Positions 768 through 12,877 of a DNA stretch of 64,000 bases are shown here, piece by piece; position 1 is the first letter of the stretch; every line of letters starts with the position of its first letter. The notes under the pieces are model-generated. The model was not told where the DNA came from, made no database searches, and worked only from the letters and a program-made list of their open reading frames with translations. Both the position numbers and the translations under genes were made by a program. Source of the DNA: Christensenellales bacterium (GTDB lineage: Bacteria > Bacillota > Clostridia > Christensenellales > CAG-138); the NCBI GenBank assembly GCA_045114775.1, contig JBGULC010000023.1, positions 17,364-81,363 on the forward strand. Direction: 5' to 3'.

Positions 768-797
768 TTGACAACGACCCCGAAAATCGGGTATAAT
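768..797 (+). promoter_or_regulatory. sigma-A type promoter of the lysine operon (TTGACA-18-TATAAT)
   Basis: TTGACA at 768-773 and TATAAT at 792-797, directly upstream of the riboswitch. Confidence 0.6.
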
Positions 798-822
798 TTC
801 CCTACAGAATTCCTTTGGGGTC

Positions 823-982
823 TTCCATAGAGGCGCGGACAGCAGGGTACCCGTCCGACCGGCAGGGCAGCCGGAATGTCGTACGGAGAAGGGGCCGTCC
901 GCCGAAGAGATCGGTCCTGCCCGGTCCGGTTTCTGGCATCGTCGTGTAAGCGGCGCTGCTGTCATGTTCATCGAGCATGGAG
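823..982 (+). promoter_or_regulatory. Lysine riboswitch (L-box / LYS element) aptamer
   Basis: Conserved L-box blocks occur in the right order: AGAGGCGC (829-836), GGAGAAGGGGCCGTCCGCCGAAG (885-907), CTGGCA..GTGTAAG..GCTGTCA (933-964). This closely parallels the B. subtilis lysC leader as I remember it. Confidence 0.8.
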
Positions 983-1021
983 CGCTATCGGTCGATCGGT
1001 CGACCGACAGCGTCTTTTTTT
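983..1021 (+). terminator. Intrinsic terminator forming the riboswitch expression platform
   Basis: 13-bp stem with one mismatch (983-995 / 1000-1012), loop TCGG, then TC plus T7 (1015-1021). Confidence 0.75.
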
Positions 1022-1097
1022 ACCCGAAACGGATCGGACGACCCCGGAAGCGCTGTGATCCCCATACATAGCAAATCAAAGTGAAGGAGAATCACCC

Positions 1098-1499
1098 ATG
1101 GAAAAAATCTCATCTATGCTCCGTCTCCGCATGAGCGCAAAGGACGCGCACTACGGCGGAAACCTGGTTGACGGCGCGCACATGGTCCATCTGTTCGGCG
1201 ACGTTGCGACCGAGCTTCTCATCAAGTGCGACGGCGACGAAGGCCTGTTCTGCGCCTACGACAACATCGAATTTCTTGCCCCGGTCTACGCGGGCGATTA
1301 CATCGAAGCCTACGGCGAGATCGACCGCATCGGCAACACCTCCCGCGGCATGACGTTCGAAGCGCGTAAGGTCATTGCGGCGCGTCCGGACATCTCCCCG
1401 TCCGCGGCCGACGTGCTCCCCGAGCCGATCGTGGTCTGCCGCGCGCACGGCACCTGCGTCACGCCGAAGAACTGCCAGCGCATTGATCACAGCAAGTAA
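1098..1499 (+). CDS. kal: 3-aminobutyryl-CoA ammonia-lyase (hot-dog fold)
   Basis: 133 aa, the size and sequence style of Kal. SD AAGGAGA upstream. Sits in the lysine fermentation operon. Confidence 0.8.
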
Positions 1500-1511
1500 C
1501 GGAGGGAACCC

Positions 1512-2339
1512 ATGGAAAAGCTCATCATCACCGCCGCCATCTGCGGCGCCGAGGTCACCAAGGCGAACAACCCCGCCGTCCCCTACACCGTCGAGGAAAT
1601 GGTCCGCGAAGCGAAGCTCGCGTACGAAGCGGGCGCGGCGATCATCCATGTGCACGTCCGCTGGGACGACGGCACGCCGACGCAGGACCGCGAACGCTTC
1701 CGCGTGGTCATGGACGCGATTCGCAAGGAGCTTCCCGACGTCATCATGATCCCGTCGACCGGCGGCGCAACCGGCATGACGCCCGAAGAGCGTCTGCAGC
1801 CGACCGAGCTCATGCCCGAGATGGCGACGCTCGACTGCGGCACCTGCAATTTCGGCGATGAGGTGTTTGAAAACACGATGCCCACGATGCGCGCATTCGG
1901 CAAGCGCATGATCGAGAACGGCATCAAGCCCGAATACGAATGCTTCGAGCTCGGACACCTCGACACCGTGCTGAACATGGCGAGAAAGGGCGAGGTCCCC
2001 GGCGCGCCGATGCAGTTCAACTTTGTGCTCGGCGTTCCCGGCTGCGCGCCCGCGACCGTCGACAACCTCGCGTTCATGGTCAGTAAGATCCCCGCGGGCT
2101 CGACCTGGACGGTCACCGGCGTCGGCAGATCCGCCTGGACGATGGCGGCCGCCGGCATCATCATGGGCGGCAACGTCCGCGTCGGCTTCGAGGACAACGT
2201 CTACCTCGGCAAGGGCCATAAAGCAGCCTCTAACGGCGAGCTTGTCGAAAAGGTCGTTCGCCTTGCGAAGGAACTCGGCCGCGAGATCGCAACGCCCGAC
2301 GAGGCGCGCGCGATCCTCGGCATGAAGCCGCTTCAATAA
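1512..2339 (+). CDS. kce: 3-keto-5-aminohexanoate cleavage enzyme (BKACE/DUF849)
   Basis: N-terminus MEKLIITAAICGAE..IIHVHVR is typical of DUF849. Operon context supports the call. Confidence 0.85.
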   Translation: MEKLIITAAICGAEVTKANNPAVPYTVEEMVREAKLAYEAGAAIIHVHVRWDDGTPTQDRERFRVVMDAIRKELPDVIMIPSTGGATGMTPEERLQPTELMPEMATLDCGTCNFGDEVFENTMPTMRAFGKRMIENGIKPEYECFELGHLDTVLNMARKGEVPGAPMQFNFVLGVPGCAPATVDNLAFMVSKIPAGSTWTVTGVGRSAWTMAAAGIIMGGNVRVGFEDNVYLGKGHKAASNGELVEKVVRLAKELGREIATPDEARAILGMKPLQ

Positions 2340-2389
2340 CCGGAATCCATACCAATCTTTTATAAAAATCAATTTCAGGAGGAATTACA

Positions 2390-3442
2390 ATGGAACAGAT
2401 CAAGGGCAATAAGTACGGCACCCACCGCGTCATCGAGCCGAAAGGCGTTCTGACCCAGGCGGCATGGAAGATCGACAACGACATGACCAAGCGTTATTCC
2501 AACGAGATCATCTGCGACGTCATCTCCCTGAACATCGACTCCGCATCCTTCACGCAGATTGAGGAAGCCTGCGGCGGCGACGAGCAGAAGATCGGCGAAA
2601 TGATCCTCGGCATCGTGGCGGAGCGCGGCAAGCAGCAGAACCCGGTCACCGGATCCGGCGGCATGTTCATCGGCAAGGTCGCCTACATCGGCGAGGACCT
2701 TCTCAAAAAGCCGGACTTCGACCTCAAGGTCGGCGACAAGATCGCATCCCTCGTCTCCCTCTCCATGACGCCCTTAAAGATCGACCGCATCAAGGCGATC
2801 CACAAGGACATCGACCGCGTGGACATCGACGGTCAGGCGGTGCTGTTTGAGTCCGCGATCTACGCGAAGCTGCCCGACGATATGTCCGAGGCGCTGGCGC
2901 TCGCGGCGCTCGACGTGGCAGGCGCGCCCGCGCAGGCAAGAAAGCTCCCGAAGGAAGGCGATTCCGTGCTGATCCTCGGCGCAAACGGCAAGAGCGGTGT
3001 GCTCTGCGGCTGGGAAGCGCTGAAAAAGGTCGGCCCGAACGGCAAGGTCGTCGGCGTTGTAAGAAACCCGAAGCAGGTCCCGGCTCTCATTGAGCTCGGC
3101 GTTTACACCGACGTCATCGTTGCGGACTGCACGAAGCCGGTCGAGGTGCTTGAAAAGGCGCTCGAAGTCAACGGCGGCAAGGAATACGACATCTCCATCT
3201 GCTGCGTCAACATCGAATCCTGCGAGATGAGCGCGATCCTCCCTGTCCGCGACGACGGTCTCGTTTACTTCTTCTCGATGGCGACCTCCTTTACAAAGGC
3301 GGCTTTGGGCGCGGAGGGCGTCGGCAAGGACGTCACCATGATCGTCGGTAACGGCTACACCAAGAACCACGCCGAGATCACGCTGAACGTGCTCCGCGAG
3401 AACGCGAAGCTCAGAAAGCTGTTCGACGAAAAATACTGCTGA
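2390..3442 (+). CDS. kdd: L-erythro-3,5-diaminohexanoate dehydrogenase
   Basis: 350 aa with a Rossmann-type ILGANGKSG motif. Lies between kce and kamA. Confidence 0.8.
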   Translation: MEQIKGNKYGTHRVIEPKGVLTQAAWKIDNDMTKRYSNEIICDVISLNIDSASFTQIEEACGGDEQKIGEMILGIVAERGKQQNPVTGSGGMFIGKVAYIGEDLLKKPDFDLKVGDKIASLVSLSMTPLKIDRIKAIHKDIDRVDIDGQAVLFESAIYAKLPDDMSEALALAALDVAGAPAQARKLPKEGDSVLILGANGKSGVLCGWEALKKVGPNGKVVGVVRNPKQVPALIELGVYTDVIVADCTKPVEVLEKALEVNGGKEYDISICCVNIESCEMSAILPVRDDGLVYFFSMATSFTKAALGAEGVGKDVTMIVGNGYTKNHAEITLNVLRENAKLRKLFDEKYC

Positions 3443-3511
3443 TTGATGCGCGGGAGCAAGGCAACAACGCCCTGCTCTCGCAGTCTTTATTCCGACGACA
3501 GGAGGATTTTT

Positions 3512-4762
3512 ATGAAAACCCGAAACGGTTTATTCGCCGACGTTCCCGAAGAGCAGTGGAACGACTGGCACTGGCAGGTACGAAACCGCGCCGAAACGCT
3601 TGACGATCTCAAGAAGGTCATGACGCTCACCCCCGAGGAGGAGGAAGGCGTCAAAAAGACGCTCGGCAAGCTCCGCATGGCGATCACGCCGTACTATCTC
3701 TCGCTGATCGACCTCGACGATCCCTACGATCCGATCCGCAAGATGGCGATCCCGCGCGCCGAGGAGCTCGACTACGCCGACTATGAGGACGCCGATCCGC
3801 TGCACGAGGATACCGATTCCCCGGTCCCCGGTCTTACCCACCGCTATCCGGACCGCGTGCTGTTCCTCATCACGGATATGTGCTCCATGTACTGCCGTCA
3901 CTGCACGCGCCGCCGCTTCGCCGGACAGAACGACTGCGGCGTTCCCGCGGCGCAGATCGATAAGGGCATTGAATATGTCGCAAACCATCCCGAGGTCCGC
4001 GACGTGCTTCTTTCCGGCGGCGACGCGCTGATGGTCGGCGACAAGGTGCTCGAAAGCATCATTTCTCGGCTTCGCGCGATCCCGCACGTCGAGATCATCC
4101 GTCTCGGCTCGCGTACGCCGGTCGTGTGCCCGCAGCGCATCACGCCGGAGCTTTGCAATATGCTCAAGAAGTACCATCCCATCTGGGTCAACACGCACTT
4201 CAACACGCCGAAGGAATTCACGCCCGAAGCCGCGAAGGCGTGCGCCATGCTCGCGGACGCGGGCATCCCGCTGGGCAACCAGAGCGTGCTTTTAGCCAGC
4301 ATCAACGACTGCAGCCACGTCATGATGGAGCTTGTGCACGGGCTCGTCAAGATGCGCGTGCGCCCGTACTACATCTACGCCTGCGACCCGTCCCTCGGTC
4401 TTTCGCACTTCCGCACGCCGGTCAGTAAAGGCATCGAGATCATGGAAGCGCTCCGCGGCCATACCTCCGGCTACTGCGTACCGACGTTCGTGGTCGACGC
4501 GCCGGGCGGCGGCGGCAAGACGCCCGTCATGCCGAACTACCTGATCTCGCAGACGCCGAGAAAGGTCATCCTCAGAAACTTCGAGGGCGTCATCACGTCC
4601 TACACCGAGCCGGAGCATTATGTGCAGAACTGCCACTGCGACGTCTGCACGGGCAAGCGCAAGGTCGAAAAGACCGGCGTCGCGTACGTTGCCGAGGGCA
4701 CCAAGCAGCACTATCTCGAGCCGACGAAGCTTCTCCGCAACGAGCGGCACGTCAAGCACTGA
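3512..4762 (+). CDS. kamA: Lysine 2,3-aminomutase (radical SAM, PLP)
   Basis: CSMYCRHCTRRR is a CxxxCxxC radical-SAM cluster. SD GGAGGA lies 5-6 nt before ATG 3512. The 23 upstream codons in the ORF track have no support. Confidence 0.9.
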   Translation: MKTRNGLFADVPEEQWNDWHWQVRNRAETLDDLKKVMTLTPEEEEGVKKTLGKLRMAITPYYLSLIDLDDPYDPIRKMAIPRAEELDYADYEDADPLHEDTDSPVPGLTHRYPDRVLFLITDMCSMYCRHCTRRRFAGQNDCGVPAAQIDKGIEYVANHPEVRDVLLSGGDALMVGDKVLESIISRLRAIPHVEIIRLGSRTPVVCPQRITPELCNMLKKYHPIWVNTHFNTPKEFTPEAAKACAMLADAGIPLGNQSVLLASINDCSHVMMELVHGLVKMRVRPYYIYACDPSLGLSHFRTPVSKGIEIMEALRGHTSGYCVPTFVVDAPGGGGKTPVMPNYLISQTPRKVILRNFEGVITSYTEPEHYVQNCHCDVCTGKRKVEKTGVAYVAEGTKQHYLEPTKLLRNERHVKH

Positions 4763-4771
4763 GGGCGCCTT

Positions 4772-6334
4772 ATGGAAAGCAAACTCGGCTTGAATTTTGA
4801 TCTGGTCAATGAGGCGCGGGCAAGCGCGGCGCACGTCGCGGCGGACACGCAGCGCTTCATTGACGTACACACGACCGTCACCGTCGAGCGTACCGTCTGC
4901 CGTCTTTTGGGCATCGACGGCGTGAACGACATGGACGTTCCCATGCCGAACGTGGTCGTGGACTATCTCACCGAAAACGCGCTGCTGCCGATGGGCGCGG
5001 CGTGGATGCTCGGCACGGCGATTCTGGAGACCGGCCTCACGCCGCAGGGCGTCGCGGAGGCGATCGACAAAGGCGAACTCGACCTTACGAAGCTTCCCGC
5101 GCACGGCGAAGCGGAGATCCGCAAAGCGCTTCAGCCCTATGTCGACGCCACGATGGCGCGGATCAACCAAAACGTCGCGAAGCGCAACGAATACCTCGGC
5201 CGTTTCGGCGACAAACAAGGTCCGTACCTCTATATCATCGTCGCGACCGGCAACATCTACGAGGACATCATCCAGGCGAAGGCCGGCGCAAAGCAGGGCG
5301 CGGACATCATCGCGGTCATCCGCACGACGGGTCAGTCGCTATTGGACTACGTGCCCTACGGCGCGACGACCGAGGGCTTCGGCGGCACCTACGCCACGCA
5401 GGAGAACTTCCGCCTGATGCGCGCGGCGCTCGACGAGGTCGGCGAGGAGCAGCACCGGTACATCCGGCTGTGCAACTACTGCTCCGGGCTGTGCATGCCC
5501 GAGATCGCGGCGATGGGCGCCTTGGAACGGCTCGACGTCATGCTGAACGACGCGCTGTACGGCATCCTGTTCCGCGACATCAATATGCAGCGCACGATCG
5601 TCGACCAGTATTTTTCCCGCATCATCAACGGTTACGCGGGCGTCATCATCAACACCGGCGAGGACAATTACCTCACGACCGACGACGCGATCACGTCCGC
5701 GCACACGGTCCTTGCGTCGCAGTTCCTCAACGAAGCGTTCGCAAAGTGCGCCGGCATGCGCGAGGAGCAGATGGGTCTCGGCCACGCGTTCGAGATGGAC
5801 CCGGCGGTCGAAAACACGTTCCTGTATGAACTGGCGCAGGCGGAAATGGCGCGCGAGATCTTCCCGAACGCGCCGTTAAAGTACATGCCGCCGACCAAAT
5901 ACATGACCGGCAACATCTTCCGCGGACACATCCAGGACGCGCTCTTTAACATGGTCACGATCCTGACGAACCAGAAGCTGCACCTTTTGGGCATGATGAC
6001 CGAGGCGATCCACACGCCGTTCATGTCGGACCGCGCGCTGTCGATCGAAAACGCGCAGTACATCTTCCGCACGATGAAGGATCTGGGCTCCGAGCTCACC
6101 TTCAAGGAAGGCGGCATCATCCGCTCCCGCGCAAACGAGGTGCTCGTAAAGGCGACCGAGCTTTTGAAAGAAATCGAAACGCTCGGGCTGTTCACCACGC
6201 TTGAACGCGGCATCTTCGCGGACGTCAAGCGTCCGAAGGACGGCGGCAAGGGACTTCAAGGCGTCGTTTTGAAGGACGAACACTACTTCAACCCGTTTAT
6301 CGAGGTCATGAAAGGCAAGGTGGCAAACGAATGA
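4772..6334 (+). CDS. kamD: Beta-lysine 5,6-aminomutase alpha subunit
   Basis: 520 aa, directly precedes the B12-binding subunit. Operon context supports the call. Confidence 0.85.
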   Translation: MESKLGLNFDLVNEARASAAHVAADTQRFIDVHTTVTVERTVCRLLGIDGVNDMDVPMPNVVVDYLTENALLPMGAAWMLGTAILETGLTPQGVAEAIDKGELDLTKLPAHGEAEIRKALQPYVDATMARINQNVAKRNEYLGRFGDKQGPYLYIIVATGNIYEDIIQAKAGAKQGADIIAVIRTTGQSLLDYVPYGATTEGFGGTYATQENFRLMRAALDEVGEEQHRYIRLCNYCSGLCMPEIAAMGALERLDVMLNDALYGILFRDINMQRTIVDQYFSRIINGYAGVIINTGEDNYLTTDDAITSAHTVLASQFLNEAFAKCAGMREEQMGLGHAFEMDPAVENTFLYELAQAEMAREIFPNAPLKYMPPTKYMTGNIFRGHIQDALFNMVTILTNQKLHLLGMMTEAIHTPFMSDRALSIENAQYIFRTMKDLGSELTFKEGGIIRSRANEVLVKATELLKEIETLGLFTTLERGIFADVKRPKDGGKGLQGVVLKDEHYFNPFIEVMKGKVANE

Positions 6335-7119
6335 GCAGCGGACTTTACAACACGCATAAAATCGAATTCGATACCACGCTCGACCTTACGCGGCTGAAGC
6401 CGTACGGCGACACGATGAACGACGGCAAGGTGCAGCTGAGCTTCACCCTGCCGGTCAAGGACGACGAGCGCGGCGTGGAAGCGGCGCGGCAGATCGCAAA
6501 GAAGATGGGTCTCGACGAGCCGAACGTGACGTATCACGCGCCGCTCGACAAGGAGTTCACGTTCTACGTGGTCTACGGCAGCTGCGTGCACACCGTCAAC
6601 TACGAGGACATCCACGTCATCACCGTCGAATCTGAGGTGATGAGCATGGAGGAAACGAACGACTACATCCGCGAGCACATCGGCAGAAAGGTCGTGATGG
6701 TAGGCGCCTCTACCGGCACTGACGCGCACACGGTCGGCATCGACGCGATCATGAACCGCAAGGGCTTCGCGGGACATTACGGTGTGGAGCGCTACGAGAT
6801 GATCGAGGCCTATAACCTCGGCTCGCAGGTCGCAAACGAGGACTTCATCAAGAAAGCGCTTGAGGTCCACGCGGACGCGCTTCTGGTCTCGCAGACGGTC
6901 ACGCAGAAGGACATCCACATCCAGAACCTCACGAACCTCATCGAGCTTCTGGAAGCCGAGGGATTGCGCGATCGCTTCGTGGTGGTCTGCGGCGGTCCGC
7001 GCATCACGCATGAGCTTGCGAAGGAGCTGGGCTTCGACGCGGGCTTCGGCGCGGGCACGTACGGCGACGACGTGGCAAGCTTCGTCGTCACGGAAATGGT
7101 CAAACGCGGCATGAAATAA
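6331..7119 (+). CDS. kamE: Beta-lysine 5,6-aminomutase beta subunit (cobalamin-binding)
   Basis: DAHTVGID is the DxHxxG B12-binding motif. ATGA start/stop overlap with kamD. Confidence 0.85.
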   Translation: MSSGLYNTHKIEFDTTLDLTRLKPYGDTMNDGKVQLSFTLPVKDDERGVEAARQIAKKMGLDEPNVTYHAPLDKEFTFYVVYGSCVHTVNYEDIHVITVESEVMSMEETNDYIREHIGRKVVMVGASTGTDAHTVGIDAIMNRKGFAGHYGVERYEMIEAYNLGSQVANEDFIKKALEVHADALLVSQTVTQKDIHIQNLTNLIELLEAEGLRDRFVVVCGGPRITHELAKELGFDAGFGAGTYGDDVASFVVTEMVKRGMK

Positions 7120-7159
7120 GCCGCCAAGATAGATACGAAATCAACAAGGAGGAACAATC

Positions 7160-7852
7160 ATGGCAAAGAAACCGGTCATCACTGCCGCTGAGGCAGCGAA
7201 AATGATTCCCGACGGCGCTACGATCATGTGCGGCGGCTTTCTCGCCTGCGGACAGGCGCGCGCCATCGTCAAGGAGCTTGTAAAGCTCGGCACGAAGGAC
7301 CTCACGCTGATCGCAAACGATATGGGTCGTGCGGTCGGTCCGATGGGTGAAGAGTTCTTCGGCATTGCGGAGCTCATCCACAACCATCAGGTCAAGCGCG
7401 TGATCGCAACGCACGTCGGCATGACGCCCGAGGTCGGCGAACAGATGAACGCCGGCACGCTGGAAGTCAACCTGATCCCGCAGGGCTCCATGGCGGAGTG
7501 CATCCGCGCGGGCGGCGCGGGACTGGGCGGCGTTCTCACCCCCGTCGGCGTCGACACGCTGATCGAGGAAAGCCCGCTCTGCCTCGGCAAACAGGAGATC
7601 GACGGCAAGCCGTATCTTCTGATGAAGCCGATCCATGCGGACTTTGCGCTCCTCGGCACCTATAAGTGCGACGAAGCGGGCAACTGCTGGTACAAGGGCA
7701 CGATGCGTAACTTCAACACCGTCATGGCGACCGCGGCGGACGTCGTCATCGCCGAGACCGAATACCTCGTTCCCGTCGGCGAGATCGAGCCCGAGAACAT
7801 CCACACCTACGGCATGTGCGTGGACTATATCGTGGAAGGAGAGAGAAAGTAA
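7160..7852 (+). CDS. atoD: Acetoacetate:butyrate/acetate CoA-transferase subunit A
   Basis: 3-oxoacid CoA-transferase A-type sequence (CGGF..CG, ECIRAGGAGLGG). SD AAGGAGG upstream. Confidence 0.8.
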   Translation: MAKKPVITAAEAAKMIPDGATIMCGGFLACGQARAIVKELVKLGTKDLTLIANDMGRAVGPMGEEFFGIAELIHNHQVKRVIATHVGMTPEVGEQMNAGTLEVNLIPQGSMAECIRAGGAGLGGVLTPVGVDTLIEESPLCLGKQEIDGKPYLLMKPIHADFALLGTYKCDEAGNCWYKGTMRNFNTVMATAADVVIAETEYLVPVGEIEPENIHTYGMCVDYIVEGERK

Positions 7853-8520
7853 TGGATAAGAACGAAATCAAAGCGTTCATCGCAAAGCGCTGCGCGAAAG
7901 AACTGAAGGACGGCGACGTCGTCAACCTCGGCATCGGCCTCCCCACCATGATCCCCGGCTTCCTTCCCGAGGGTGTTGACCTCGTCATCCATGCCGAGCT
8001 CGGCATCGTCGGCGCGGGCGCAACTCCGAAGCCCGAAGACCCGAACTACGATCCGTACCATGTCGTCGACGCAGGCGGCAACGTCGCTTCCGTGGCGTTC
8101 GGCGGCGGCTTCATCGACTCCGCAACGAACTTCGGTCTGATTCGCGGGGGCCACGTGGACGCGTGCTTCCTCGGCGCGCTCGAAGTCGACCAGGAAGGCA
8201 ACCTCGCAAACTGGATCATCCCCGGAAAAAGAATGCCCGGCATGGGCGGCGCAATGGACCTCTGCGTCGGCGCACGCAACTGCATCGTCTGCATGGAGCA
8301 CACCGCGAAGGGCAACCCGAAGATCCTCGAAAAGTGCCGTCTCCCCTTGACCGCTTCGCATTGCGTCAAGAAGATCATCACCGAAATGTGCGTCCTCGAA
8401 GTCACCGAAAACGGACTTCTGATGACCGAGATCAACCCGGAATTCACCGTCGACCAGGTCAAGGCAGCCACCGCCGCCCCGATCACCGTCGCGGAGAACC
8501 TCAAAAGCATGATCGACTGA
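7852..8520 (+). CDS. atoA: Acetoacetate:butyrate/acetate CoA-transferase subunit B
   Basis: ATG 7852 overlaps the atoD stop codon by 1 nt (TAATG). Subunit-B-like sequence. The track ORF start at 7816 lies inside atoD. Confidence 0.8.
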   Translation: MDKNEIKAFIAKRCAKELKDGDVVNLGIGLPTMIPGFLPEGVDLVIHAELGIVGAGATPKPEDPNYDPYHVVDAGGNVASVAFGGGFIDSATNFGLIRGGHVDACFLGALEVDQEGNLANWIIPGKRMPGMGGAMDLCVGARNCIVCMEHTAKGNPKILEKCRLPLTASHCVKKIITEMCVLEVTENGLLMTEINPEFTVDQVKAATAAPITVAENLKSMID

Positions 8521-8533
8521 TCAACCGCATTAC

Positions 8534-8562
8534 AAAAGCCCGACCGAAAGGCCGGGCTTTTT
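8534..8562 (+). terminator. Intrinsic terminator ending the lysine operon
   Basis: GCCCGACC-GAAA-GGCCGGGC stem followed by T5. Confidence 0.7.
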
Positions 8563-8573
8563 CATGTAGTAGC

Positions 8574-8690
8574 AAGGGCTTCCCCCTTGGGTGGGGAAGC
8601 TGTCACCGAAGGTGACTGATGAGGGGGATTACAAGGGAACCTTATCCACCGCAAGCGGTCCCCCTTCCCCATGCTGATGCAGGGAAGGCA
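8574..8690. repeat. GC-rich multi-hairpin interspersed repeat, copy A
   Basis: Three hairpins: GCTTCCCC/GGGGAAGC, GTCACC/GGTGAC, CCTTCCC/GGGAAGG. Positions 8592-8624 are a perfect reverse-complement match to 48213-48245. Confidence 0.6.
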
Positions 8691-8699
8691 AAACACCTC

Positions 8700-9707
8700 T
8701 CATTCGAAGATTTCCTTTGAAACAGGAATATACACCATCTGCAAAGGAATAATCCTTTTATACTTTTCGCTTAAATCTCCGTAATACTTGGTTATCAAAT
8801 CAACTAATTCCGTTCCGTTTATTCCTCGAATACTCGGTGTTTTCTGCAAAAAATCTTTTGCTTTCTTCGTATAATCCGAAAGGGTGACAAACAGGCCATA
8901 ATCACCCGTTTGCATTGCACCTTTCAAAGATTGTATCGTGGCTTCTTTGATTTCGCTGTCCTGACTCTTGACCTGTACTATAATTCGCGGCGGAAGCTCA
9001 TCTTTATAAGCCGTAATGTCGATCCCGCTGTCTCCTCCATGCGGCGATACTTTTGTACGATAACCCATTGCTCTCAACAGATCGGCTACAAATTCTTCAA
9101 GATCGTACCCTTTCAGCTGTCGGCTGAGTTCTTTCAAAATAAAGTCTCTTGTGCTTTCAATAATCTCTTCTGCAGTAGCAGCTACTGTTTCATCCTCGTT
9201 TTCAGGATCATTTACTTTTTTGAACCCTTTGTCAAGCGCTCCGAGGAACTCGTCTACATAGTTCTTTACCATGAAAAAAGATAAGGCAGAACCGATCTCG
9301 TATAGCGCGCCCTGCGTAAAATAGGTCCTCGGGAATTGTTTTAACCATTTGACTTTCCGTGTTTGTACATACTCCGGTTGTGCAGCATCATAACGATATG
9401 CTCCCTCAATCATACCTATATGCACCTGTCGATCGCTCTTTGACGGGTAAACCACATAATCGCCGATTTGTGCCTCGCAGCAAAAGCGGTGCAGCATTCC
9501 TGCGCCGTTTGCTATGTTCCCTTTTTTCGCGTCAACATATACTTCCGTATACCGTTTTTTGAACGCTTCACGATCAGAGCCGAGGATACTCAGGTCTCCC
9601 ATCTCTTTCCATCCGATTGCAATGATGCTTTCTTTGCAAAATAGACTGTCATCCTTACAATGAATGCCCCAAACTCGTTTTTCCTTTTTCTTGTTTTTAT
9701 CTTCCAT
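8700..9707 (-). CDS. Mrr-cat (PD-(D/E)xK) restriction endonuclease with an uncharacterised N-terminal domain (putative type IV enzyme)
   Basis: The C-terminus DLLRAMGY..GGDSGIDI..IIVQVKS..GLFVT fits the Mrr_cat pattern. SD GGAG precedes ATG 9707. The gene is strikingly AT-rich compared with its flanks. Confidence 0.75.
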   Translation of the reverse strand: MEDKNKKKEKRVWGIHCKDDSLFCKESIIAIGWKEMGDLSILGSDREAFKKRYTEVYVDAKKGNIANGAGMLHRFCCEAQIGDYVVYPSKSDRQVHIGMIEGAYRYDAAQPEYVQTRKVKWLKQFPRTYFTQGALYEIGSALSFFMVKNYVDEFLGALDKGFKKVNDPENEDETVAATAEEIIESTRDFILKELSRQLKGYDLEEFVADLLRAMGYRTKVSPHGGDSGIDITAYKDELPPRIIVQVKSQDSEIKEATIQSLKGAMQTGDYGLFVTLSDYTKKAKDFLQKTPSIRGINGTELVDLITKYYGDLSEKYKRIIPLQMVYIPVSKEIFE

Positions 9708-9779: not shown

Positions 9780-10898
9780 TTATTTCTCCGCTTTCGCCGC
9801 GCGGATGGATTCGATCAGCTCCGGAACGACTTTGAAGAGGTCGCCCACGATGCCGTAGTCCGCACATTCGAAGATCGGGGCGGTCTCGTTCTTGTTGACC
9901 GCGATGATGCATTCGGATTCCTGCATGCCCGCCTTGTGCTGGATCGCGCCGGAAATGCCGAGCGCGACGTACACCTTCGGGTGGACCGTCTTGCCGGTCT
10001 GGCCGACCTGATGATCCGCGCCGATCCAGCCCGCGTCGACGCAGGCACGGGACGCGCCGACCACGCCGCCGAGCTCGTTTGCAAGCTCTTCCGCAAGGGC
10101 AAGACCCTTTTCGACGTCCTTGCTGATGCCGCGGCCGACGGAGACGATATAGTCTGCGCCGATCAGATCGACGAGCTTCTTCGCCGCCTTGACGACCTCG
10201 ACGACCTCGGTCTTGATATCCTCGGCGCTGAGTTCAAACGCGGGATGCAGAAGCTCAACCTCGCGCGGGTTCTCGCGGCGCTTCATCACGCCGGGACGCA
10301 CCGTCGCCATTGCGGGACGGAAGCGCGGGCAGATGATGGACGCCATCAGGTGACCGCCGAAAGCCGGGCGGGTCATCTTGAGGTCGCGCGCGACGGAGTG
10401 ATCCGCGCCCGCGAGCTTGACGCTCTTGGTGCGCTCGATGCGGTCCTCGGGAAGCGTGGACGCTTCGCGGAGGAACTGCTGATAGTTATTGAGGTCGATA
10501 TCCAGATGCGTGCAGTCCGCGCAGAGACCGGTGTGCAGTCTTGCCGCGCAGCGCGGCGCGAGATCGCGTCCGATCGTGGATGCGCCGAAGAGAAGGATCT
10601 CGGGTTTGAATTCCTCGACCGCGTCGACGATGACCTTGGCGTATGCGTCGGTCGTGAATGTGCCGAGAAGCGGGCTATTGTAGACGTAGACCTTGTCCGC
10701 GCCGTAGAGGCCGAGCTCCTTAGCAATGCCGTCGACGTTGTCGCCGAGCAGGACGCCGCAAAGCTCCACGCCGAGCTCGTCGGCAAGCTTGCGTCCCTCG
10801 CTGATCAGTTCAAAGGTGGTCGGCATCATTTCGCCGTTGCGCTGTTCGCAGAAGACCCAAACGTTCTTGAAAGCTTCGATTTCGCTGCTGTTAAACAT
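9780..10898 (-). CDS. etfA: Electron transfer flavoprotein alpha subunit
   Basis: EtfA-type sequence (TRPAFGG, VYVALGISGAIQH). Follows etfB and bcd. Confidence 0.85.
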   Translation of the reverse strand: MFNSSEIEAFKNVWVFCEQRNGEMMPTTFELISEGRKLADELGVELCGVLLGDNVDGIAKELGLYGADKVYVYNSPLLGTFTTDAYAKVIVDAVEEFKPEILLFGASTIGRDLAPRCAARLHTGLCADCTHLDIDLNNYQQFLREASTLPEDRIERTKSVKLAGADHSVARDLKMTRPAFGGHLMASIICPRFRPAMATVRPGVMKRRENPREVELLHPAFELSAEDIKTEVVEVVKAAKKLVDLIGADYIVSVGRGISKDVEKGLALAEELANELGGVVGASRACVDAGWIGADHQVGQTGKTVHPKVYVALGISGAIQHKAGMQESECIIAVNKNETAPIFECADYGIVGDLFKVVPELIESIRAAKAEK

Positions 10899-10916
10899 GA
10901 TTCCGTTCCCCCTTCC

Positions 10917-11717
10917 TCAGATGATGTGCTTCGCGGCAAGGATGCCCGCGAGCTTGTCGGTCGTTTCCTTTCCGTCGCCCGGAAGCATCATGCCCGCGCC
11001 CTTTTGCGGCGGCGTGAACGACGTCAGGATGTTCGTGGGAGAACCTAAGAGTCCGATCGTGCTCTTGTCGATCAGCGGGTGATCCTTGAGCGTATCGTAG
11101 GTCATGGTGACGACGGGCTTTTCGTAGCACTCAAAGATGCCGCCGATGTTCATGTAGCGCGGCTTGTTGAGCTCCTTGATGCAGGTGATCATGCAAGGCG
11201 TGTGCACTTTGACCGTCATGTAGCCGTCCTCAAGAATACGCTTGACGGTCAGCACGTCGCCGTCCTTTTGGATCTCGCCCGCATAGGTGACCTGCGGCAG
11301 ATGCAGCTTCTCCGCGATCTGCGGACCGACCTGCGCGGTGTCGCCGTCGATCGCCTGACGTCCGGCAAGGATGATGTCCTCGGGTTCGACGCCGTAGGTG
11401 TCGATCGCCGCCGCGATGATCTGGCTCGTCGCGTAGGTGTCGGAGCCGCCGAACTCGCGCGCGGTGATGAGCACGCCCTCGTCCACGCCCATTGCCATGA
11501 GCTCGCGGAGCATGCCCTCGGCGGGCGGCGGTCCCATCGTAAACGCCACGACCCTGCAGCCTAATTCATCTTTGAGAGAAAGTGCTGCTTCGATTGCGTT
11601 CATGTCGTCGGGGTTGATGATGGTCTGCATGGACGCGCGGTCCAGCGTGCCGTCCGGATTGACGGCGACCGTTCCGGAGGTATCGGGAACCTGCTTTACG
11701 GTAACAAAAATCTTCAT
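10917..11717 (-). CDS. etfB: Electron transfer flavoprotein beta subunit
   Basis: MKIFVTVKQVPD N-terminus is typical of EtfB. Confidence 0.85.
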   Translation of the reverse strand: MKIFVTVKQVPDTSGTVAVNPDGTLDRASMQTIINPDDMNAIEAALSLKDELGCRVVAFTMGPPPAEGMLRELMAMGVDEGVLITAREFGGSDTYATSQIIAAAIDTYGVEPEDIILAGRQAIDGDTAQVGPQIAEKLHLPQVTYAGEIQKDGDVLTVKRILEDGYMTVKVHTPCMITCIKELNKPRYMNIGGIFECYEKPVVTMTYDTLKDHPLIDKSTIGLLGSPTNILTSFTPPQKGAGMMLPGDGKETTDKLAGILAAKHII

Positions 11718-11734
11718 GTTCTCTGCCCTCCTTC

Positions 11735-12877
11735 TTACTTCACACCGAGGTTTGCGGCGATGACCATGCGCTGGACCTCGCTCGTGCCCTCGTAGATCTC
11801 GGTGATCTTCGCGTCGCGCATCATGCGCTCCACGGGATATTCACGCGTGTAGCCGTAACCGCCGAACAGCTGCACTGCGCGGCGCGTCACGTCGGACGCG
11901 GCTTCCGCGGCAAACAGCTTCGCCATCGCGGCTTCCATGCTGCAGCGCTCGTGCGCCTGCTTCTTCATGGCCGCGTTGTATACCAGGAACTGCGCGGCCT
12001 GCATGCGGGTATGCATGTCGGCAAGCTGGAACTGCGTGTTCTGGAACGAGCTGATGCGCTTCTTGAACTGCACGCGCTCCTTCGTGTACTTGATCGCCTC
12101 GTCGATCGCGCCTTCGCCGATGCCCAGCGCCTGCGCCGCAATGCCGATGCGGCCGCCGTCGAGCGTTGCCATTGCGATCTTGAAGCCCGCGCCTTCCTTG
12201 CCCAGAAGGTTCTCCTTCGGGACGATGCAGTCCTCGAAAATGAGGTCGCAGGTGGAGCTTCCGCGGATGCCCATTTTCTTTTCATGCTTGCCCTGCGAAA
12301 AGCCCTTGAAGCCCTTTTCCACGATGAACGCGGAGATGCCGCGGTTGCCCATCTTCGGATCGGTCATGGCGAACACCACGAACACGTCCGCAACGCTGCC
12401 GTTGGTGATGAAGCACTTCGAACCGTTCAGCACGTAATGATCGCCGTCCAATACCGCCGTGGTCTGCTGACCGGAGGCGTCGGTGCCGGCGTTCGGCTCG
12501 GTGAGACCGAAAGCGCCGAGCTTTTTGCCGCTAAGGAGGTCCGGCAGGTACTTCATCTTCTGCTCCTCGGTGCCGTTCTCAAAGATCGGCGCGCAGCACA
12601 GCGAGGTGTGCGCGGAGACGATGACCGCGGTGGTGCCGCAGACCTTCGCGAGCTCCTCGACCGTAATCGCGTAGCTCAAGACGTCGCCGCCCGCGCCGCC
12701 GTACTGCTTCGGGAAGTAGATGCCCATCATGCCGAGCTTCGCCATCTTTTCGACGGTCTCCATGGGGAAGCGCTCTTCCTCGTCGATCTCGGACGCGATC
12801 GGCTTCACTTCGTTTTCTGCGAATTCGCGAACCATCTTGCGAACCAGCAGCTGTTCCTTCGTCAGACGAAAATCCAT
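11735..12877 (-). CDS. bcd: Butyryl-CoA dehydrogenase (acyl-CoA dehydrogenase family)
   Basis: 380 aa ACAD-type protein ending YEGTSEVQRMVIA. Lies between hbd and etfBA. Confidence 0.85.
   Translation of the reverse strand: MDFRLTKEQLLVRKMVREFAENEVKPIASEIDEEERFPMETVEKMAKLGMMGIYFPKQYGGAGGDVLSYAITVEELAKVCGTTAVIVSAHTSLCCAPIFENGTEEQKMKYLPDLLSGKKLGAFGLTEPNAGTDASGQQTTAVLDGDHYVLNGSKCFITNGSVADVFVVFAMTDPKMGNRGISAFIVEKGFKGFSQGKHEKKMGIRGSSTCDLIFEDCIVPKENLLGKEGAGFKIAMATLDGGRIGIAAQALGIGEGAIDEAIKYTKERVQFKKRISSFQNTQFQLADMHTRMQAAQFLVYNAAMKKQAHERCSMEAAMAKLFAAEAASDVTRRAVQLFGGYGYTREYPVERMMRDAKITEIYEGTSEVQRMVIAANLGVK

Follow-up and report, generated by a model that had tools for sequence, protein, structure and literature searches.

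The 64,000-nucleotide stretch of the Christensenellales bacterium genome analysed here (the window) carries a lysine riboswitch directly upstream of a lysine-fermentation operon that begins with kal, and this element is very probably a transcriptional ON riboswitch for L-lysine, activated by its ligand and kinetically controlled. The 3' strand of the P1 helix of its aptamer lies inside the 5' arm of an intrinsic terminator, and both helices are conserved and covary among relatives of the locus. We infer that lysine is bound by the aptamer and that, with this wiring, binding favours transcription of the operon, whose genes consume lysine, as fits an ON switch. The original prediction for this region had expected such a switch and had held its sign to be unclear from the sequence. 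The position of the P1 3' strand inside the terminator 5' arm fixes the logic, and the expectation is supported by the overlap, by covariation and by a contrast set of lysine riboswitches away from kal.

The strand shared by the lysine aptamer and the terminator

The elements from the promoter to the start of kal are the following.

768-797, + strand: sigma-70-type promoter, -35 TTGACA 768-773, 18-nucleotide (nt) spacer, -10 TATAAT 792-797
820-995, + strand: lysine riboswitch aptamer (L-box or LYS element, RF00168), with P1 825-830/985-990, P2 835-902, P3 906-934, P4 935-960 and P5 962-980
825-830, + strand: P1 5' strand CCAUAG, from the covariance-model alignment
985-990, + strand: P1 3' strand CUAUCG, shared with the terminator 5' arm (the switching segment), from the covariance-model alignment and folding
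983-1021, + strand: intrinsic terminator, 5' arm 983-995, loop UCGG 996-999, 3' arm 1000-1012, then UCUUUUUUU 1013-1021
1083-1100, + strand: Shine-Dalgarno GAAGGAG 1083-1089 and kal start codon ATG 1098-1100, read from the sequence

The RF00168 covariance model matched 820-995 over its whole length (model positions 1-182 of 182, not truncated) with 86.6 bits (E = 2.7e-21; gathering score, 30 bits). This was the only Rfam match in the whole 64-kb window and the single RF00168 match in the whole 2.54-Mb genome (96% complete). The junction and core motifs seen in the model alignment, AGAGG (after P1), GCCGAAG, CUGG, CUGUCA and UGGAG-GCUA / UGGAGCGCUA, are all present in the window; they are invariant or nearly so across an alignment of 37 sequences (36 relatives and the window, see below), in which the invariant columns coincide with the family consensus. 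By match and motifs, the aptamer is a genuine member of the RF00168 lysine riboswitch family. A well-conserved L-box aptamer had already been recognised here, and that part of the prediction stands, whereas its limits (823-982) give way to the model boundaries of 820-995.

The covariance-model alignment also relocates P1. P5 is formed by 962-968/974-980, with AUGG 977-980 as its 3' strand, and AGCG 981-984 is the segment joining P5 to P1. The bases ATGGAG (977-982), previously read as the P1 3' strand, belong to the P5 3' strand and this joining segment, and the 'extended P1' GGTCTTCCAT/ATGGAGCGCT, which likewise draws on bases of P5 and the P5-P1 joining segment, is not the P1 of the family. 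It was because P1 had been misplaced, so that it only abutted the terminator, that the regulatory sign had looked ambiguous. In the window, P1 has C826 opposite C989, a mismatch: in the model register it consists of four contiguous pairs plus one pair past the C-C mismatch, and with C989 bulged it has six pairs, C826 and C825 pairing with G990 and G991. A P1 lengthened to 11 pairs (alignment columns 1-11/187-197) was considered and rejected, since the sole common pairings beyond P1 are U-G and G-U wobbles at the two adjoining positions, with no covariation; P1 is kept here at 6 pairs, possibly 7-8.

The terminator had been called correctly, with its stem (983-995/1000-1012) and U-run (1015-1021, seven U's). 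The stem has 12 Watson-Crick pairs and one mismatch (A987/C1008), and folds with -19.1 kcal/mol as drawn or -20.7 kcal/mol with G982-U1013 added; owing to the internal mismatch the hairpin escaped a simple terminator scan, and it was established by direct folding. The P1 3' strand (985-990) sits within the terminator 5' arm (983-995), and P1 and the terminator are therefore mutually exclusive, with no anti-terminator between them. A P1 stabilised by lysine would take away the lower terminator stem, hence a direct ON logic.

The promoter agrees with the consensus at 12 of 12 positions, as had been predicted, with a mean of 0.3 such sites in shuffled versions of the region. Among same-genus relatives (n = 14) TTGACA is invariant and the -10 hexamer nearly so, with identical spacing. 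The transcript would start near 804-805.

Taken together, these elements suggest the following course of events. Transcription would begin a few bases past the -10 hexamer, and in the nascent leader the arms P2-P5 would fold as in a canonical lysine aptamer. The P1 3' strand is transcribed last among the aptamer elements, and it doubles as the lower-middle portion of the terminator 5' arm. When lysine is absent, the weak P1 would be displaced by the 12-pair terminator hairpin and polymerase would stop near 1021, at the U-run. Binding of lysine in the five-way junction would lock P1, which would then hold 985-990; just the top of the hairpin (about 991-995/1000-1004) could form, too distant from the U-run for termination, and polymerase would continue into kal-kce-kdd-kamA-kamDE-ctfAB. 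The decision would most likely be kinetic, taken during transcription of roughly 990-1021, as in the pbuE adenine switch.

Conservation among relatives and lysine riboswitches away from kal

A search of species-representative genomes with Kal gave 80 loci (80-97% protein identity), mostly from metagenome-assembled rumen or gut Clostridia with the labels Oscillospiraceae, Clostridiales or Clostridia. In 36 of the 80, kal is directly preceded by RF00168. In the other 44, which include all loci labelled Anaerovoracaceae, Bacteroidales/Bacteroidaceae, Flavonifractor or Peptostreptococcaceae, there was no RF00168 match within 2.5 kb upstream of kal, and Intestinimonas has the element in one of its two loci (L060). 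In all 37 sequences, that is the 36 relatives and the window, the terminator 5' arm begins 1-3 nt past P5 and includes the whole P1 3' strand; the terminator hairpins range from -19 to -35 kcal/mol and are followed by U-runs of 4 to 8.

Both structures show covariation in the alignment of these 37 sequences (A1), on which all counts were made with the window included and with 500 shuffles per test. For the aptamer, 91.0% of cells are paired and both sides have changed in 38 of 53 pairs, a result reached by none of the 500 shuffles (covariation score 0.467 versus 0.213 in shuffles). For the terminator, 97.1% of cells are paired, with changes on both sides in 7 of 14 pairs, again reached by 0/500 shuffles. 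Sliding the partner columns by 1-3 positions brings pairing down to 38-52% (aptamer) and 25-52% (terminator). The P1 helix itself is 98.6% paired, with compensatory changes at two pairs. Followed through all three strands (P1 5' / shared / terminator 3'), the outermost P1 pair is C/G/C in 35 sequences and G/C/G in L060, and the next pair is mostly A/U/G or A/U/A, with U/A/U in L008 and G/C/G in L038. As supporting evidence rather than as a formal statistic, this pattern points to one strand kept complementary to two partners, with both alternative helices maintained by evolution.

An RF00168 search of 40 related genomes provided a contrast set. Among same-genus genomes, 20 of 24 have a match, usually one each, and in the kal-linked loci of the genus the P1 3' strand and the terminator 5' arm overlap by 6 nt in 16/16 cases. 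In loci not linked to kal the overlap is 0 in 12/12, the terminator starting 16-77 nt past the P1 3' end. Other families of the order account for eleven of the 12: in nine an asd-like open reading frame (ORF) follows, three of them confirmed by NCBIfam, in one dapA follows (confirmed), and in one (L090) the available sequence has no intact first ORF. The twelfth is L100, from a same-genus genome. Several non-kal loci (e.g. L082, L087) carry after P1 a tail, CUGUUUU, complementary to AAAACAG in the terminator 5' arm, a pairing that has the form of the classic anti-terminator of OFF switches. Within the order, the overlap criterion gives a clean separation between catabolic and biosynthetic contexts.

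A lysine riboswitch away from kal occurs in two same-genus genomes. In G007 (G007:C8:49945-50119) it is a second copy beside the kal-linked one, and in G023 (locus L100, G023:C148:821-3994) it is the sole match; L100 has a separate downstream terminator and no P1 overlap; on its small contig, a short hydrophobic ORF is all that can be seen past it, and no downstream gene was identified. The genome search found no second, non-kal copy of the riboswitch in the genome of the window.

Folding energetics and alternative explanations

The leader (805-1022) was folded with and without a P1 constraint under a nearest-neighbour model, which gave the following energies.

P2-P5 core alone: -52.1 kcal/mol
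Core with P1 in the model register: -53.4 kcal/mol
Core with P1 and C989 bulged (C826 and C825 paired with G990 and G991): -55.4 kcal/mol
Core with the terminator: -71.2 kcal/mol
Unconstrained minimum, terminator included: -95.5 kcal/mol
Minimum with P1 forced: -78.8 or -81.3 kcal/mol

In the unconstrained fold P2-P5 and the terminator are present and P1 is absent, and the P1 fold is 14-17 kcal/mol less stable than the terminator fold. In this model the RNA adopts the terminator by default, which is what an ON switch requires. When growing prefixes of the leader were folded, the P1 core had a probability of 0.25-0.75 for transcript ends 992-1000 and of at most 0.06 once position 1006 was present; a four-pair extension (819-822/994-997) helps the P1 core in these prefix folds. 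With P1 held, just the upper pairs of the hairpin form, at least 8 nt away from the U-run.

Several points weigh against the ON reading. At full length, about 12 kcal/mol of extra P1 stability would be needed to displace the terminator, which should exceed what lysine binding at physiological concentration can supply. Because P1 cannot beat the terminator at equilibrium, we infer kinetic control, under which the time for lysine to capture P1 is short and ends when the terminator 3' arm is made; the ON model thus hinges on a presumed kinetic trapping. The covariation of the P1 pairs comes from three or four divergent sequences, and the three-strand pattern reflects few independent events among related sequences. 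Finally, the copy in the window is peculiar: its C826/C989 mismatch, a C/C/G combination over the three strands, occurs in no other sequence compared, and its P1 is the weakest of the set. This copy may need more lysine, switch poorly or use the bulged register.

Pressed further, this last point becomes an alternative in its own right, in which the architecture is that of an ON switch but the window copy is impaired or retuned. C989 not only breaks a P1 pair but also converts the usual U-G wobble of the terminator into a C-G pair (C989-G1006), and together these changes could yield a mostly constitutive terminator, expression then being set by other inputs such as read-through from kamBC or by a much higher lysine threshold. 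The restriction of C/C/G to the window and the mere -1.3 kcal/mol that P1 adds in the model register speak for this possibility. However, the register with C989 bulged restores six pairs (-3.3 kcal/mol), beyond which the four-pair extension 819-822/994-997 is available; three relatives (L009/L105 and L110) have C opposite U at the same P1 pair, so the pair tolerates mismatches; and the operon, the promoter and all aptamer core motifs are intact. We consider an impaired copy improbable. An OFF switch, in which lysine would repress the operon, is more improbable still. Such a switch would rely on a segment of the unfolded aptamer, GCUGUC 958-963 or CGACCG 856-861, pairing with a terminator arm as an anti-terminator, as had been put forward for this leader. 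Both 6-nt complementarities do exist in the window, and the first (958-963/1006-1011) can still form in 89.6% of cells across the relatives. Yet it shows no change on both sides and 325/500 shuffles do equally well; the terminator 3' arm has to complement the P1 3' strand, which the conserved CUGUCA resembles, and this explains the pairability. The second (856-861/989-994) fares no better, with 67.7% of cells paired, one pair changed on both sides and 84/500 shuffles doing as well, so that neither gives a signal of compensatory change. Each pairing is worth -6 to -7 kcal/mol versus -19 for the terminator, and a fold forced to contain either one is 12-13 kcal/mol less stable than the terminator fold. 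Moreover, the lysine-folded aptamer would itself hold 985-990, so it could not free the terminator, and the genuine OFF lysine switches of sister families are laid out otherwise, with the terminator 16-77 nt downstream and the tail of the P1 3' strand complementary to its 5' arm. Lysine repressing lysine fermentation would also be physiologically senseless.

The same architecture might instead respond to a different ligand, for example an intermediate of the lysine pathway such as beta-lysine, given that this aptamer clade is found solely before catabolic genes and that ligand binding here is predicted from sequence. The high RF00168 score, the retention of every conserved junction motif and the agreement of the invariant columns of the 37 sequences with the family consensus argue against it, and we regard it as about as improbable as the OFF switch. 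A lysine-activated ON switch is thus the reading that we retain. A wider proposal built upon it is speculative and, in our judgement, rather doubtful: the first natural lysine ON riboswitch amenable to study may come from this clade, with the window copy as a natural tuning variant in which C989 weakens P1, strengthens the terminator and raises the lysine threshold. Under the same proposal, given that kamB-kamC directly precede the switch and that no convincing terminator separates them from it, the element may also gate read-through from kamBC, and would act as a checkpoint within the cluster as well as a 5' leader.

The regulated operon, its surroundings and known systems

Gene calls were made from NCBIfam matches, mostly above curated equivalog cut-offs, and they confirm the kal-kce-kdd-kamA-kamDE-CoA-transferase order that had been predicted downstream of the riboswitch.

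1098-8520, + strand: regulated operon of eight genes, kal-kce-kdd-kamA-kamD-kamE-CoA-transferase A-B (NCBIfam)
1098-1499, + strand: kal, 3-aminobutyryl-CoA ammonia lyase (192.7 bits, cut-off 160)
1512-2339, + strand: kce (423.1 bits, cut-off 382)
2390-3442, + strand: kdd (262.7 bits, cut-off 200)
3443-4762, + strand: kamA, lysine 2,3-aminomutase (AblA model; 603.3 bits, cut-off 525.4)
4772-6334, + strand: kamD, lysine 5,6-aminomutase alpha (906.5 bits, cut-off 600)
6331-7119, + strand: kamE, lysine 5,6-aminomutase beta (408.5 bits, cut-off 280)
7160-7852 and 7816-8520, + strand: 3-oxoacid CoA-transferase A and B (subfamily models above cut-off)
1-753, + strand: 3' part of kamC, lysine 5,6-aminomutase reactivase ATPase (NF052383; 320.8 bits for the part in the window, 485.8 for the full gene)

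The riboswitch is thus located inside a lysine-fermentation gene cluster. kamC ends at 753, 14 nt before the -35 hexamer, and kamB lies further upstream on the same strand (NF052386, 313.6 bits); since kamB-kamC precede the promoter of the riboswitch, they are not behind the switch. The promoter spacer contains a small hairpin (779-797, CCCGA-AAA-UCGGG, then UAUAAUUU), 26 nt past the kamC stop, which is the sole terminator-like site returned by the simple scan, with 0.9 such matches expected by chance, and which could weakly terminate kamBC transcripts; the segment ATCGGGTATAAT of this spacer is conserved in most same-genus relatives. Upstream of kamB, in locus L111 (G000:C23:9364-18463, examined over 2854-8753), the opposite strand holds an uncharacterised 637-amino-acid ORF (4256-6169), beyond which lies a YfcC-like putative basic amino acid antiporter (2854-4290; 151.6 bits, below the cut-off of 500). 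Converging on the lysine operon from the other side, at 9780-12877 on the - strand of the window, are EtfA-like, EtfB-like and acyl-CoA dehydrogenase genes, whose best models are the acryloyl-CoA reductase subunits AcrA, AcrB and AcrC (AcrA and AcrB above their cut-offs, AcrC below). This set probably encodes the butyryl-CoA dehydrogenase/Etf complex for the butyrate branch; it is not under riboswitch control.

Between the U-run and the kal ATG, 77 nt apart in the window, the leader is poorly conserved. The spacer 1022-1097 is unconserved among same-genus relatives, whereas the promoter and ribosome-binding site are conserved there; relatives keep AAGGAG and the ATG, and the 34-101 nt between U-run and ribosome-binding site are unconserved and variable in length. 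Inspection of the sequence and the terminator scan found no second terminator in 1022-1097, that is no hairpin followed by a U-run and no run of four T's. At 1047-1061, GGAAGCGCTGTGATC is loosely similar to the 3' end of the aptamer (GGAGCGCTATCGGTC, 979-993), and within 1047-1075 GCUGUG and CAUAGC could form the six pairs of a hairpin that lacks a U-run; several same-genus relatives have a GGAAACGCTG motif at the same position, and the segment may be the remnant of a duplicated switch end. The relatives L016 (2340-2500), L021, L022 and L024 have a much longer spacer from the riboswitch terminator to kal (163-268 nt), with a long-range complementarity, GAGCTTGCGGTCAAAG ... CTTTGCCCACAAGCTC, and a CTCTTT...AAGAGAG hairpin, which may represent an inserted structured element or a second regulatory stage; the window has nothing like it. 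At the 5' end of the leader, a hairpin in the minimum-free-energy fold (812-817/828-833) that would sequester the P1 5' strand was set aside as unproven, the upstream leader being too little conserved in relatives.

If the ON reading is correct, the sign of regulation of this operon is settled from sequence alone, and lysine should act, in a group of uncultured Clostridia from rumen and gut, as the inducer of its own fermentation, with butyrate and acetate as products. With 37 sequences, covariation over three strands and the OFF contrast of sister families, the comparative set offers unusually clean evidence of a helix and a terminator competing for one strand. These sequences would be good candidates for the first experimental demonstration of the predicted class and could serve as lysine-inducible parts; what is known of riboswitch mechanism is unchanged.

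ON wiring of lysine riboswitches has been predicted in print from 2003 on, and the locus is a clean new example rather than a new kind of element. Barrick and Breaker (2007, PMC2258182) credit Rodionov (2003) with lysine riboswitches of ON logic that bury pieces of the terminator on ligand binding, and Mukherjee (2017, PMC5584792) list kal/kce-linked lysine riboswitches as positively regulated, citing Serganov and Patel (2009). The activating examples predicted there are kal-kce in Clostridium (Acetoanaerobium) sticklandii, kal in Fusobacterium nucleatum and pspF-kal-kce in Thermoanaerobacter tengcongensis (PMC2258182, PMC5584792), in line with the statement in the original prediction that an activating role had been forecast for LYS elements upstream of such operons. 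No bench test of a lysine ON switch was reported in the literature searched. As described there, these elements share with the window the aptamer family, the pathway (kal, kce, kam), the predicted sign and the burying of part of the terminator stem by the ligand-bound form. They differ in that the lineage of the window is one of uncultured rumen and gut Oscillospiraceae-like Clostridia, its operon is longer (eight genes from kal), and kamB-kamC lie upstream of the switch.

The classic OFF switches of Bacillus subtilis lysC and Thermotoga maritima asd belong to the same RF00168 family and have the same conserved core, and a control RF00168 search gave matches in both genomes. In contrast to the window element, their platform includes an additional anti-terminator, and lysine favours termination; the asd/dapA switches of the sister families are built in this way, their terminators lying 16-77 nt downstream and not overlapping P1.

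A parallel in wiring also lies outside the lysine family. The adenine riboswitch of Bacillus subtilis pbuE (ydhL) is a transcriptional ON switch whose terminator 5' arm includes the P1 3' strand, with no separate anti-terminator; the terminator is the default fold, and capture of P1 by the ligand during transcription prevents termination. The P1/terminator wiring of the window element is the same, and it also agrees with the general statement in PMC2258182. In contrast, pbuE is a purine sensor built on a three-way junction, whereas the lysine sensor has a five-way junction, and the ligand and the regulated function are unrelated. In physiological terms the likeness is to the glycine riboswitch on gcvT, which, although of another aptamer class and usually with tandem aptamers, is likewise an amino-acid-sensing RNA that turns on the degradation of its own ligand (PMC11477304).

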